64,000 nt of DNA from Opitutales bacterium (GTDB lineage Bacteria > Verrucomicrobiota > Verrucomicrobiia > Opitutales > PNEW01), in the NCBI GenBank assembly GCA_965197745.1, contig CBDANS010000005.1:416001-480000 (forward strand). Reading direction: 5' to 3'. The position numbers and the translations under genes were made by a program. Every line of letters starts with the position of its first letter. Positions within the stretch are counted from its first letter, which is position 1. Shown piece after piece: positions 17,296-41,297 of this stretch. The notes under the pieces are model-generated. The model did not search any database, was not told the origin of the DNA, and saw only the letters and a list, made by a program, of their open reading frames with translations.

Positions 17296-18613
17296 TGGTC
17301 GTGACCACGAAAACTGGGACAGTTGAAAAGTTAGTCTGGGTAACCTAGAAAGGACTCAGACAATGAAAGGCAAAAGATACACGACCGAAGAGAAAATACG
17401 GATGCTGCGGCAGGCGGACAAAGGGAAAACGATCCTGGAAGCATGCCGCGAGAACAACATTAGCGAACAGACTTTCCACCGCTGGAAGCGTGAGTTTGGG
17501 ATGATTGATGTCGACCAGGCCAAGCGGATGAAGGAACTCTTTGAAGGAGAACGCGCGGTTAAAACGGATGCTGGCGGACAAGCTGCTGGGGATAGAGATC
17601 CTGCAGGAGACCCTCGAAAAAAAACTGTAAGCCCTGGGCACAAGCGGCAAGTGGCAGAGAGACTTGTGGCTCGGGGCCAGTGTTCGATGCGAGCGGGGTG
17701 CCGGTACTTTCGGCTGCACCGTTCCACCTATGCGTATAAGGCGAAGCATCCGGATGCTTGGTTAATGAAACTGAAGGCGGCAGTAAGGCGGTTATCACGG
17801 CAATATGCCAGGTGGGGCTATCCGAAGATCACGAAGCTGTTGAAAGACGAAGGCTGGGAGGTGGGTAAACGTCTCGTGCAAGGTCTACGACGCGAACTGG
17901 GCTTGGCGATCCCCCAACGCAAGCCAAGACGTCGGGGCAGGGGTGTTTCCACCGGGCTGCCGACCAAGGCCGAACATCCCGGCCATGTTTGGACCTGGGA
18001 TTTTATCCACGATAAGACGGTCCGCGGTGGCAGTTTAAAAATGTTGACCGTGCTCGATGAGTACACCCGCGAGTGTCGAGTGATCCATGTTGATCGCCAT
18101 ATCAATGCGGAAACGGTGCGCGGTATCATGCAAAAACTGCTTGCCCGTCATGGGCCGCCACAATATATTCGCAGTGACAACGGTTCCGTTCCGAGGAGCG
18201 AAGCGACGACATGCGAAGCCATTCATTGAAAAGGAATTGAGAGCCTGGCTAACTGCGATGAAAATCAAAACCCTCTATATCGAACCAGGAAGCCCTTGGC
18301 AGAACGGATACATCGAATCGTTGCATGCCCGTTTTCGCGAGGAGTGTTTAAACCGTGAACAGCTATGGACTTTGACCGAAGCCCGCGTGGTGATCGAGGA
18401 CTGGCGCTGGCTTTACAATAATGTCCGACCCCACCGCAGCCTCGGCAATATCACCCCACGGTGCTTCGCTGAAGACATTAATACCGAAGGCTTGGGCTCC
18501 ATTCGGGCTACGCCCTCATTGCGCCCAAGCCTTGACTTCCTCTACCAACTTAACTTCAACATTAACCTCTCCAGACTAACTCTCTCGGTGGACCAGTTTA
18601 CGTAACCCGATCA
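17296..18613 (+). mobile_element. IS3-family insertion sequence, inactivated
   Basis: Imperfect terminal IRs TGGTCGTGACCACGAAAACTGGGACA and (reverse complement) TGATCGGGTTACGTAAACTGGTCCA; orfA/orfB with an A8 slippery run at 17617-17624; no flanking direct repeat (CTAG vs CCTT). Confidence 0.88.
17363..18605 (+). pseudogene. IS3-family transposase orfAB, disrupted
   Basis: HTH orfA (MKGKRYTTEE...) and DDE motifs WTWDF, SDNG, PGSPWQNGYIES. A one-base frameshift lies near 17540 and a 32-nt insertion at 18189-18220 breaks SDNGSEF. Confidence 0.9.
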
Positions 18614-38512: not shown

Positions 38513-39154
38513 ATGGATTATGACAAGCAACGAGCAACTTTAGTAAAAAGGTTGACCCGATTCCGGACGGGAGGGTTGCGTGATATCAGCGTTATCGATG
38601 CTTTAAAAAAAGTACCTCGACATCTGTTTATTGAACCTGACCTGCAAGCGTATGCCTATGAAGATCGTGCTATGCCCATTGCCTGTGAGCAAACCATATC
38701 ACAACCCTACATTGTTGGCTGGATGTCAGAGGCCTTAACCCTTCAACCTGATCATCGTGTTCTGGAAATTGGAACGGGAAGTGGATACCAGACCGCGATC
38801 CTCGCGGAAATCGTCAAAGAAGTTTTTACGATCGAGTACTACGATGATCTGGCTCAACAGGCACAATCAACCCTCGATGCTATGGGGTATAAAAATATTC
38901 ATTACCTGGCGGATGATGGTTATAATGGCTGGGCGGAAGCAGCCCCTTTCAACGGGATCCTTGTCGCTTGCAGGGTTGAAACAGTACCCCCGGCTTTAAT
39001 AGACCAACTTAAAGAAGGGGGTAGCATGGTTATCCCCATCGGTCCGGTGCGCAGACAAATTCTACATGGTTACATGAAGCGTAAAGGACAATTGCAAAGC
39101 TTGAATGCAATAGAAGTACGATTTGTCCCATTGTTAAGAAAGGGAAAAGATTAA
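38513..39154 (+). CDS. pcm: Protein-L-isoaspartate O-methyltransferase
   Basis: VPRHLF, QTISQPYIV, VLEIGTGSGYQTA, VRFVPL. Confidence 0.96.
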   Translation: MDYDKQRATLVKRLTRFRTGGLRDISVIDALKKVPRHLFIEPDLQAYAYEDRAMPIACEQTISQPYIVGWMSEALTLQPDHRVLEIGTGSGYQTAILAEIVKEVFTIEYYDDLAQQAQSTLDAMGYKNIHYLADDGYNGWAEAAPFNGILVACRVETVPPALIDQLKEGGSMVIPIGPVRRQILHGYMKRKGQLQSLNAIEVRFVPLLRKGKD

Positions 39155-39252
39155 TTAACAATTAACGGCTGATCGTTAAAGCGATAGATCATCAGCGAGT
39201 GTCGGGAAGAGATAATTATGGAATGATTGGACCCCGTTTTTCGTACCAATTA

Positions 39253-40249
39253 TTAAGTGAGAGAGTTCCCGGGTATTAATGGTTTTAGGATTGATGTATA
39301 TGAGAGATCTTGGCGAAGTGAGGGCGTAGCCCGAACGCGGCCAAGATCTGAAAGGAATGTGACAAACTCTTGTGGGCTTTGAAAGCCTAAACGACTGTGG
39401 GGATGATCATGGTTATAGGTCTGGCGCCATTGTTCGATTACAACTTGTGCTTCAGCCACGCTGAGCAACACTTCACGGTTCAAACACTCATCGCGTAAGC
39501 GGTTGTGAAACGACTCGATGAAACCGTTTTGCCAGGGACTGCCCGGATCGATATATATCGCCTTGATCTTTTTGTCGGACAACGACTGCTGCACTTGATG
39601 AGCAATGAATGGCTTCGCATGTCGTCGCTTCGCTCCTCGGAACACTGCCGTTGTCACTACGGATATAGCTGGGAGCTCCCTCCTTTTCAATGGCCTCGCT
39701 AAGCACAGAGAGGACATCCGATGAGGGGAGTTCACGAGCGACCCGGATATCCAGACATTCACGCGTATATGTCTTCGCTTCGCTTGAGTGTCGTCGCTTT
39801 CAGCTCCTCGGTACATCGATCAGAGTCATCATCTTTAATGGACCGCCATGGTCTGTGCGATCATGGACAAAGTCCCAGGACCAAAGGTGATTGCGACCGG
39901 TTGCTTTAGTAGGCGACCCCGTAGAGACCCCTTGACGGTGTCTACGCTTTTTAGGTGGCTTTACCTGCAACCCTTCTGAACGTCGTACTGCCTGAACAAA
40001 CTTCCTGTTTGTTGTCCAGCCTTCCTTTACGAGCAAGGCACGGATGCGCCGGTAACCGTAGCAGGGATGTTCCCAGGACAGGGTTATAATCCGCTCGGCC
40101 AACCGCTGAGCTTTCTTACTGGCCTGCTTGGGCTGGTAGCTGAAAGTTGACCAACTGAGGCTGAGGTAGGAACAAGCCCTTCGCAACGAGCACAGCCCTC
40201 TCTCAGCCGCATCTTTTACTACTCGCTTCTTCTGCTTGGGGCTCACCAC
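39253..40249 (-). pseudogene. IS3 orfB (DDE) disrupted by two short insertions
   Basis: WSWDF, IDEYTRECL, SDNGSEF and PGSPWQNGFIES can be recovered after removing the inserts at 39771-39813 and 39611-39642. Confidence 0.9.
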
Positions 40250-40509
40250 TTTTTTGACAGCGTTTCCTCCATTACCTGATTCTTAAGCATTTGATCAGCG
40301 AGCATCTTCTTCAACTCGGTGTTTTCTTTTTCCAGCTCTTTAAATCGCTTCGCATCGGCTAGTTCCAAATTGCCATACTTTTTACCCCAGCGATAGAAGG
40401 TCTGTTCACTCACGTTGTTGCCTCGGCAGATTTCCTCTACCGTTTTTCCGGTATCGGCTTGCCGCAGTATTGCGATGATCTGTTCTGTTGTGTATCTTTT
40501 TCTTTTCAT
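40243..40509 (-). CDS. IS3 orfA (HTH plus leucine zipper)
   Basis: MKRKRYTTEQII...VSEQTFYRW..KY...KELEKENTELKKMLAD. Confidence 0.92.
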   Translation of the reverse strand: MKRKRYTTEQIIAILRQADTGKTVEEICRGNNVSEQTFYRWGKKYGNLELADAKRFKELEKENTELKKMLADQMLKNQVMEETLSKKW

Positions 40510-40835
40510 GAGGTTATCTGTTTATCCCGATAACCTCTCTCTGTTAATGATACCATTTTTGGGGGTCACTCCAGGAAAGAGGAGCGACAAACGGGGACTA
40601 ATATGATGTTCCTTTATTTTTTTTTAAAAATTAAATGTCATTCAAAAAATTTAAGTATTCTGAACTGTATTATTATCAAAAACCTGTAAAAAAAATAAGG
40701 TTTAAATTTCATGCTGGTATTATATGTAAAAATAAGTATAAACTATGGTATATTTAGATATTATTTTTATTTTTAATCCTACGATTAATAGTTGAATTAA
40801 ACTTTATTAAACAGGTATAGGATAAAAAAAACCGT

Positions 40836-41297
40836 ATGATACCAAAACCGGTTAGAAAAGTAGCGTATTTAATCATCTTTATTGCGCTGGGTTACTATGC
40901 TTTCAATGTTATCAGATTGCATACCCGTCAGGAAGTAATTGCCTTTAAAAATTATTCAGGCGCGCTCATTGACGGTAATGTTAATGTTGGCCGCAAGTTA
41001 GTAGCAACCAGGGAGGCATTGGACCCCTTTAAAAAACGTAAGAAGCGCAACGAAGCATTACGAGGAGAAGTACGATTTACCTGGTATAAAATTAGAAGCA
41101 TCCGACGCGGGAAAAATGGTAAAACAGCCAATCTGGAAATTCGTCAAATCATTCGTATTGATCCCCCGGGCAGTGACACCCTTTTCGGAACAGATAAGAT
41201 AATGAATAATCAAAGAGTTGCTATGATTCAAAAAGAATCCAATTGGAAAATAGAAAAGTATAGTGACTCTTATTATACTCCAGGGATGAAAGAATAG
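40836..41297 (+). CDS. Membrane-anchored hypothetical protein (possible NTF2-like fold)
   Basis: N-terminal TM helix; C-terminal MIQKESNWKI pattern. Confidence 0.7.
   Translation: MIPKPVRKVAYLIIFIALGYYAFNVIRLHTRQEVIAFKNYSGALIDGNVNVGRKLVATREALDPFKKRKKRNEALRGEVRFTWYKIRSIRRGKNGKTANLEIRQIIRIDPPGSDTLFGTDKIMNNQRVAMIQKESNWKIEKYSDSYYTPGMKE

Follow-up and report, generated by a model that had tools for sequence, protein, structure and literature searches.

The window analysed here is a 64,000-nt stretch of DNA from a marine Opitutales bacterium (G000:C5:416001-480000, where G000 is the source genome assembly, 92% complete). On its minus strand lies a copy of an IS3-family insertion sequence (IS) whose transposase gene, orfB, is interrupted by two micro-inserts. 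The first of these, termed s1, occupies a conserved glutamate codon and is the main subject of this report; the second, s2, lies further downstream in the same gene. Membership of the IS3 family is indicated by Pfam matches of the host gene to HTH_Tnp_1, HTH_21 and rve_3, together with an A AAA AAG -1 frameshift site. Another IS3 element of the window, referred to as the first IS3, provides a comparison. The relevant features are as follows.

39224..40573, minus strand: IS3-family insertion sequence, subfamily B1, 1350 bp, with ends TGGAGTGACCCC... and ...GGGGTCCAATCA
40243..40509, minus strand: orfA, encoding 88 aa with HTH_Tnp_1 and reaching as far as the slippery site A AAA AAG
39800..40249, minus strand: N-terminal piece of orfB, HTH_21, stopped by the TGA of s1
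39771..39813, minus strand: s1 micro-insert, 43 nt (TACCGAG / GAGCTGAAAGCGA / CGACA / CTCAAGCGAAGCGAAGAC), in the Glu codon of LID-E-YTREC
39643..39770, minus strand: middle piece of orfB (YTREC...SDNGS), between s1 and s2
39611..39642, minus strand: s2, a 32-nt micro-insert that interrupts the SDNGS-E-F Glu codon and, with a net gain of 31 nt, causes a frameshift
39253..39610, minus strand: C-terminal piece of orfB (FIAHQ..., rve_3 core, stop included), frame shifted by s2
18189..18220, plus strand: insert of s2 type with all 32 nt identical, carried by the first IS3 (lineage A1, at about 17296-18613)
18059..18061, plus strand: GAG of the first IS3 at its counterpart of site 1 (LD-E-YTREC), uninterrupted

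A 43-nt insert in a transposase codon

The minus strand reads ATC GAT G[TACCGAGGAGCTGAAAGCGACGACACTCAAGCGAAGCGAAGAC]A TAT ACG CGT GAA TGT. Placed by script between TGATCGATG and ATATACGCG, s1 (39813..39771) separates the G of the LID-E-YTREC Glu codon from its last A, with the middle A of that codon exchanged for 43 nt. The net gain of 42 nt maintains the reading frame but brings in a TGA at 39802-39800, and the upstream open reading frame (ORF) at 39800-40249 ends there with ...MTLIDVPRS. The A at 39770, the next base after s1, may itself be part of the inserted segment.

Sister copies of the same IS possess this site without the insert, and s1 is therefore an insertion. Specifically, six copies in an alignment of 13 lack s1 and read GATG-AATA(T/C/G)AC, and 11 B-type copies genome-wide keep GATGAATAT uninterrupted (GATGAAT...). 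When s1 and s2 are each read in silico as one base, orfB is open over 307 aa. An earlier note on this stretch had proposed a 43-nt insert in the Glu codon of ID-E-YTREC that adds an in-frame TGA, and the empty sister copies and the premature end of the upstream ORF bear out both points. The note had also described a common TNCCGAG-hairpin-GACGACA scaffold, and the order T(A/T)CCGAGGA, short stem-loop, GACGACA indeed recurs at 39611-39642 and 18189-18220. Its further statement that the matching site of the first IS3 is intact with GAG agrees with the sequence GAT GAG TAC found there, in which GAG is 18059-18061.

The stem of s1 comprises 3 bp closed by a GAA loop. Its nearest-neighbour fold (-1.1 kcal/mol) is no better than that of shuffled sequences (z +1.57), so it is chiefly sequence conservation that defines the element. 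The window IS copy as a whole is flanked by a 4-bp TTCC repeat; judged by eye, the flanks of other B copies are unclear.

The inserts are retained in RNA-derived sequence. A 725-nt contig from metatranscriptome X18 crosses s1 ungapped (39686-40410), as does a 238-nt contig from metatranscriptome X19 (39660-39893), and an X18 contig spans s2 ungapped (39531-39715). No joint at s1 was detected in the four runs examined, two of which were RNA and two other. The joints observed at s2, one of them in a non-RNA run, correspond to empty alleles of other copies, with 8 or 2 other letters between the two sides.

Insert variants, target sites and IS3 lineages

The 13-copy alignment revealed two additional variants, both absent from the window copy. 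Variant s3 is 43 nt long and lies in the Gln codon of PW-Q-NG, and s4 is 36 nt long and lies in the Glu codon of RD-E-C. The four variants define sites 1 to 4 and produce net gains of 42 (s1), 31 (s2), 42 (s3) and 35 nt (s4). Stops are brought by s1 and s4 and the frame is shifted by s2 and s4, with s3 leaving the frame open. At all four sites the filled allele has the form N[T(A/T)CCGAG...C]A, compared with N-A-R in the empty allele, such that at least one base is lost and no target duplication is formed.

The pattern CCGAGGAGC-N(0-12)-GCGACGACA matched three times in the window, compared with zero in each of 100 shuffles, and 103 times in the genome. To count the individual variants, we searched the genome with blastn-short and located s1 at 33 places (25 exact), s2 at 73 (51 exact), s3 at about 13 and s4 at 16, or about 135 in total. 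Every variant is confined to its own site, and the left flank of s1 is CGATG in 33/33 cases. The targets of s1 and s4 are near-identical (CGATG-A-AT), yet there is no swapping between the sites.

A tblastn search with the insert-free reading as query identified 127 orfB-like loci in the genome. Thirty-four B-like loci were scorable at all four sites, and their states (F, filled; E, empty; sites 1-4 in order) were FFEE in 22, FFFF in five, EEFF in three, EFFE in two, and EFEF and EFEE in one each. None was EEEE, and 33 of the 34 carry at least two inserts. Such mosaic states imply either exchange or repeated gain. Furthermore, s1 is present in G032 and G060, two genomes of another genus in the same family, where copies carry s1 only, s2 only, s1+s2, s2+s3 or s1+s2+s3, and one fragment is empty at all four sites. 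The existence of s2-only copies in the source genome (EFEE, EFEF and EFFE) and of single-insert copies in the relatives (s1 only or s2 only; L021/L023 versus L022/L024) indicates that s1 and s2 arose in separate events.

These distributions bear on two additional claims of the earlier note, namely that s1 marks an independent event and that one gene was hit twice. The gene lineage was certainly hit more than once, and four times in the five FFFF copies. The event at s1 is separate from that which placed s2 at the DNGSEF site, but it is not independent in the window copy. Both s1 and s2 are old relative to this copy, neither is a fresh hit, and the s1 present there either came down with the IS by inheritance or was transferred from another IS copy.

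The note had also inferred a preference for GAA. At site 1, GAA is what uninterrupted homologues contain, as the note expected: it was found in 11/11 uninterrupted B-type alleles here and in 7/7 in the relatives. Lineage A, which has GAG at site 1, carries an insert there in 0/34 copies. However, this GAA/GAG contrast is confounded by descent, and one ancestral event could account for it. Uninterrupted alleles in the relatives read GAG in 20/20 cases at site 2 and in 29/29 at site 4. In the source genome, 12 regular-expression matches to uninterrupted site 2 (probably including at least one non-IS sequence) comprise 10 GAG and two GAA. The base that follows the insert in filled site 2 is A in 73/73 cases; one lineage E copy has C there. 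Because sites 2 and 4 are GAG when uninterrupted and G[insert]A when filled, GAA is not required, and the proposed preference fails as a general rule. Most likely, the terminal A would arrive with the insert and two target bases (A-R) would be replaced. It is unlikely that every GAA allele at sites 2 and 4 has already been filled, since sites 1 and 3 still offer many clean GAA and CAA alleles.

The insert-free IS contains TGAAT at three places on its coding strand, of which two are sites 1 and 2. The target sequences hint at a short recognition site, (T)G-A-R-T, that may simply happen to spell conserved protein motifs. DNA folds computed for the empty targets were weak and inconsistent; the target A was unpaired in most, and nothing decisive emerged.

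Two subfamilies of the B lineage have multiplied while carrying inserts. Eight B1 copies are 99.2-99.85% alike and 13 B2 copies are 98.2-99.9% alike (for example, C6:23405-24755), and every one of them carries s1 and s2. In addition, codon 23 of orfB, which follows the slippery site, is TAG in all 13 B2 copies and CGA in B1. Because these near-identical copies share an ordinary TAG, B-type copies must be able to multiply without a working gene of their own.

A comparable situation is seen in lineage A2, in which four insert-free copies with intact frames exist alongside nine almost identical copies with s2. Two of the insert-free copies encode a fused 415-codon orfAB, and the other two have the canonical arrangement of 100 + 354 codons with A6G. 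This is an autonomous/non-autonomous pattern. Filled and empty A2 alleles differ only as G[insert]A TTC versus GAG TTT, which indicates that transfer of the insert can include a few bases of its flanks. The fused copies (C4:137187-138113 and C7:1901594-1902520, each extended by about 300 nt on its upstream side) have a small indel and need no frameshift.

The consensus sequences of B1 and B2 are 89.6% identical. Our own Nei-Gojobori script, applied to these consensus sequences, gave a ratio of nonsynonymous to synonymous change (dN/dS) of 0.158 in the true frame (dS 0.37) and of 1.30 and 1.35 in the wrong frames, and B1 and B2 therefore diverged as working genes. Despite the 10.4% divergence, s1 and s2 are identical between the two subfamilies (75/75 nt), which argues that the inserts entered B1 and B2 after the split, either through exchange among copies or through repeated insertion. 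In a sliding-window comparison, s2 falls within a stretch of about 200 nt that has almost zero differences, and s1 forms a 43-nt island of identity whose neighbouring windows have 7 and 11-13 differences per 50 nt.

Identity of the inserts extends across more distant lineages. The same s2 sequence (32/32 nt) is present in lineages A, B and E, whose proteins are 43-47% identical, with left flanks that include CAGTG, TTCCG, ATCGG and TTCGG, and s1 of lineage E differs from the B-type insert at 1/43 nt. The proteins of lineages A and B are 47% identical, and by eye their terminal repeats look related (TGGTCGTGACCACGAAAACTGG versus TGGAGTGACCCCCAAAAATGG).

The wider module family and known systems

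As judged from sequence, the inserts belong to a family of modules of about 27-45 nt that consist of T(A/T)CCGAG, a short stem-loop, CGACA and a variable tail ending in C(A). Outside IS genes the arrangement is TACCGAG, a stem-loop of any sequence and CGACATC(T/C)TCC. A search combining a regular expression with a hairpin requirement gave 176 matches in the genome versus 22 in the reversed genome, in which matches to the seed are the commoner (2169 versus 1205). The stems covary: GC-GAA-GC is replaced by AC-GTA-GT, and GCT-GAA-AGC by GCC-GCA-GGC, and many unrelated stems are found in the wider family. The heptamer GCGAAGC, which forms an unusually stable DNA mini-hairpin, occurs once or twice in s1, s2 and s4.

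Some modules are nested in another repeat, between GGC and AATCCAGG, for which one pattern recovered 11 empty and three filled copies. Read against the empty copies, one nested module there has caused no loss of a base. This host repeat resembles a miniature inverted-repeat transposable element (MITE) and is composed of TTGTCATTGCGA(A/G)G.AG, a hairpin, GACTGCGGC, AATCCAGG... and a long inverted arm; some copies contain a nested TACCGAG module at the GGC/AATCC junction and others lack one (for example, C6:1107716, C7:491385 and C6:356689). Other modules lie within 'AATCG'-rich intergenic repeats. Three more interrupt the T-loop (GGTTCG[insert]ATCC) of partial copies of tRNA 3' ends located downstream of tRNA-Asn and tRNA-Gln, and a like arrangement is present after tRNA-Ser in another genus and in G032. 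The G[insert] junction also recurs at T-loop and D-loop-like sites in several genera. The partial copies consist of the T-arm, the 3' acceptor end and CCA, with one or two per tRNA (C6:355390-355720, C5:236385-236610, L019 and L012). In layout they resemble the RtT repeats that follow tyrT in E. coli, and the Rfam RtT match (E 0.06) is below threshold.

The IS-type core was detected in 19 of 151 sampled Opitutales genomes, representing 17 of 89 genera, with no match to the reversed control. Among the matches listed by an all-species genome scan, most were from GC-rich Actinomycetota and Collinsella, and only the rows for Opitutales, Puniceicoccaceae and Coraliomargaritaceae looked relevant; about 70 chance matches are computed for 18 fixed bases in 596 Gb, and the scan itself gave no count. 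A match to the site-2 pattern in genome G075 proved to be ordinary ClpB coding sequence. In genome G114, a different variant (TACC...AAGCGAAGCGCCC) occupies the same DNG-x-E-F codon of a distant transposase. On scaffold G114:C56:1-976 (L003), a run of N separates an empty allele (GACAATGGACCTGAG, reading CCTGAG) from a filled one (GACAATGGACCTG[insert]ATTT), an arrangement suggestive of both alleles being present in the genome or the population.

No reverse transcriptase was found in the genome by a PF00078 search. A single Y1 HUH gene is present (C6:163380-163706; L001, 878-1924), which scores 46 bits with PF01797 and 66.6 bits with NCBIfam REP_Tyr_transpos, for which the cut-off is 80. This candidate REP-associated tyrosine transposase (RAYT; REP, repetitive extragenic palindromic sequence) is bordered by 25-nt inverted repeats (GGGTCAGACTGCGAATTC...) that are unrelated to the modules, and one TWCCGAG match lies nearby, as chance predicts. 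Neither an IS200/IS605 transposase-TnpB pair nor a RAYT flanked by modules was found in the genome.

Our literature searches, which did not cover the REP family tables of PMC3733652 or Elhai 2008, yielded no description of the family, and it is apparently undescribed in print. The closest parallel is with REP/REPIN sequences. According to Di Nocera et al. 2013 (PMC3733652), these are 20-40 nt long, high-copy and non-coding, carry a tag beside a covarying stem-loop and form families within one genome, all of which is true of the modules. The same paper reports that intragenic REPs are most numerous in Opitutus terrae and that some RAYT genes are bordered by long inverted repeats instead of REPs; the RAYT-like gene described above resembles this 'TIR-associated' (terminal inverted repeat) type. 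However, the REP/REPIN tag is GTAG or CGTC directly abutting an imperfect palindrome, whereas the modules have T(A/T)CCGAG on the 5' side of the stem and CGACA on the 3' side. No GTAG abuts a module stem and the sole RAYT-like gene has no flanking modules, and we rejected assignment to REP/REPIN. The modules differ further in the 2-3 bp stem of the IS variants, in the replacement of 1-2 bases at a G-A-R site and in having no inverted dimers. They may nevertheless correspond to the O. terrae REP families GTAG-17, -19 or -20 mentioned in PMC3733652.

Rickettsia palindromic elements (RPE), which PMC3733652 also mentions, are likewise selfish short DNAs inside protein-coding genes. RPE are about 100-150 nt long, in frame and translated in working proteins, whereas s1 introduces a stop codon and both s2 and s4 cause frameshifts.

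The palindrome-associated elements of the IS200/IS605 type, which depend on Y1 HUH transposases, share with the modules the lack of target duplication, the hairpins near both ends and a short specific target. Indeed, s1, s2 and s4 have two GCGAAGC-type mini-hairpins near their ends, as in those elements. IS200/IS605 elements insert 3' of a tetra- or pentanucleotide and keep the target bases, whereas the modules lose 1-2 bases at IS3 sites; the nested module described above shows no such loss. Classification as a MITE was rejected, as the ends are not inverted repeats, no duplication is formed and at least one base is lost.

The SDR (small dispersed repeats) of Nostoc and Anabaena, which Elhai et al. 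in 2008 are said to have described, are reportedly mobile repeats of about 20-30 nt that are nested in repeats or mobile elements and have precise filled and empty alleles. No enzyme is known for SDR. They belong to a different phylum and differ in sequence, and neither fixed sites in conserved transposase codons and tRNA T-loops nor a base-replacement junction is known as a feature of SDR.

Origin of the inserts

Starting from the insertion, its junction geometry, the stop, the sharing of inserts among copies, the amplification of otherwise dead copies and the retention of inserts in RNA contigs, we favour an explanation in which an ultra-small, non-coding and non-autonomous insert broke the transposase and was then passively amplified with the IS. 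We give this explanation a probability of roughly 65%. A module would have landed in the LIDEYTREC Glu codon of an ancestral B-type IS3, replacing 1-2 bases and generating no duplication. The TGA of s1 is predicted to truncate both OrfB and the frameshifted OrfAB upstream of the DDE catalytic core, so that the window IS copy could not make its own transposase, and s2 would shift the frame further downstream. The broken IS would have been mobilised by transposase supplied in trans, which is the probable source of its spread. The inserts may have passed between paralogous copies by very short-patch copying, through either gene conversion or re-insertion at the same site.

Several points weigh against this explanation. 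No insert-free B-type source of transposase exists among the 34 scorable copies, and cross-mobilisation by the intact lineage-A enzyme, though conceivable, is a guess. The B1 copies have no defect other than s1 and s2. One feature of s1 is gene-60-like, in that an AGC codon within the small stem directly precedes the TGA and recurs in frame 21 nt downstream. The RNA evidence comes from contigs, in which minority forms are hidden, and the libraries may contain DNA. Finally, the identity of inserts across lineages whose proteins are 43-47% identical could reflect selection on the insert itself.

An unlikely alternative, which overlaps with passive amplification, is that the modules are homing-type hyperparasites, repeatedly and sequence-specifically inserted by some enzyme into (T)G-A-R-T. 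The conserved-motif targets would be GAT GAA TAT, AGT GA(A/G) TT, GAT GA(G/A) TGT and the T-loop TTCGAAT, and IS families would be progressively killed. The two explanations differ in that homing involves repeated targeted insertion, as opposed to one event per site followed by inheritance. The perfect match of s2 across lineages A, B and E (32/32) and the single difference (1/43) in lineage E s1 would be expected from homing, and the flanking homology is too short for ordinary recombination. The different variant at the DNG-x-E-F codon in G114, with an empty allele on the same scaffold, the coincidence of 2/3 TGAAT places with sites 1 and 2, and the G[insert] junctions at T-loop and D-loop-like sites in several genera point in the same direction. 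Because ordinary homologous recombination is unlikely for both the cross-lineage s2 and the G114 case, targeted insertion is a live possibility. However, each variant is tied to one site, a restriction more readily explained by descent, or by copying of a filled allele, than by insertion from a free pool of modules. No candidate enzyme was found in the genome, which has no reverse transcriptase and a RAYT-like gene with unrelated inverted repeats, and survivorship bias alone could explain hits in selfish or redundant DNA.

It is possible, though doubtful, that the family represents the smallest known homing-type mobile DNA, with 27-45 nt written into G-A-R-T and 1-2 bases replaced. To our knowledge, such base-replacement junction chemistry is unlike that of any described transposase or recombinase. 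If this proposal is true, the target spells both conserved transposase motifs (D-E-Y, S-E-F and D-E-C) and the tRNA T-loop, and the modules would act as hyperparasites that strike the same codons repeatedly in unrelated IS3 lineages and drive whole IS families to extinction; in the source genome, 0/34 scorable B-type copies are clean.

If the family is what it appears to be, it extends the range of ultra-small non-autonomous repeats (REP, SDR and RPE) to 27-45-nt modules placed at defined bases without duplication, and constitutes mobile DNA parasitising mobile DNA, with about 135 inserts disabling IS3 transposase genes here and one entire IS lineage left without a clean copy. The instance in the window adds little beyond the family, and the interest lies in the insertion chemistry of the family and in its enzyme.

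Programmed recoding, whereby ribosomes would hop or read through the inserts, which would act as attenuators while some transposase is still made, is very unlikely. It would account for the finding that 0/34 B copies are insert-free, yet eight B1 copies are 99.2-99.85% alike and otherwise intact, and the AGC-TGA arrangement of s1 with its second in-frame AGC and the open frame of s3 are suggestive in this regard. The modules also resemble the T4 gene 60 gap and the byps of Magnusiomyces mitochondria in being inserts within coding sequence (27-55 nt), and s1 is like such bypass elements in that its stop immediately follows a codon found again further downstream. We enumerated take-off and landing codon pairs for all four variants and no common rule emerged. 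A matching pair is present only in s1 and s3, and s3, being in frame without a stop, needs none; s2 and s4 (in the copy examined) have no codon pair that restores the frame. Translational bypass of the gene 60 or byp type was rejected on this basis, as no consistent pair exists over s1-s4. Unlike bypass elements, the modules are also present in non-coding DNA, namely in repeats and tRNA-like sequences. In addition, the 13 B2 copies multiplied despite their extra TAG, such that a working gene is not required, and lineage A simply contains plain intact and broken copies. The inserts mimic pseudogenes or recoding in transposase genes, and both annotators and those who search for recoding should recognise them.

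It is highly improbable that the host encodes an adaptive system for silencing IS elements by means of modules written into transposase genes. About 135 modules do lie in IS3 orfB at four catalytic-domain motifs, and all fully scorable B-type copies are hit at least once and 33/34 at least twice. These counts are mostly copy-number inflation from a handful of events, however, and modules also reside in intergenic and tRNA-linked repeats, with no associated gene found.

Removal at the RNA level, with the transposase mRNA losing the insert as a very small intron-like or ribozyme-like element, is scarcely credible: the conserved scaffold and a compensatory change in the small stem would suit it, but contigs argue, if weakly, against it by keeping s1 and s2, no joint at s1 appeared in the four runs, exact excision would leave G+A, a 2-nt codon and hence a broken frame, no RtcB-type or intron logic is evident, no Rfam family matches bar a chance snoRNA, and the predicted fold is weaker than shuffled. 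The Rfam scan of 39000-41000, with E values up to 10, returned chance-level matches only. One of these, a C/D-box snoRNA match (E 0.8, 39798-39834), was read as chance, as it covers the coding ATGATGA..CTGA upstream together with the first insert bases. A hammerhead core, compared by eye, is similar in its GA-stem-GA arrangement, but U4, G5, A6 and A14 do not fit and it was rejected.

The junction of s1 also creates a start codon. A 187-codon ORF (39253-39816, minus strand) begins at an ATG formed there (G ATG TAC C...), runs in the wrong frame between s1 and s2, and is back in the true orfB frame past s2. The approximately 43 codons between the inserts are not transposase sequence, and the predicted product could be an N-terminally truncated catalytic-core protein.

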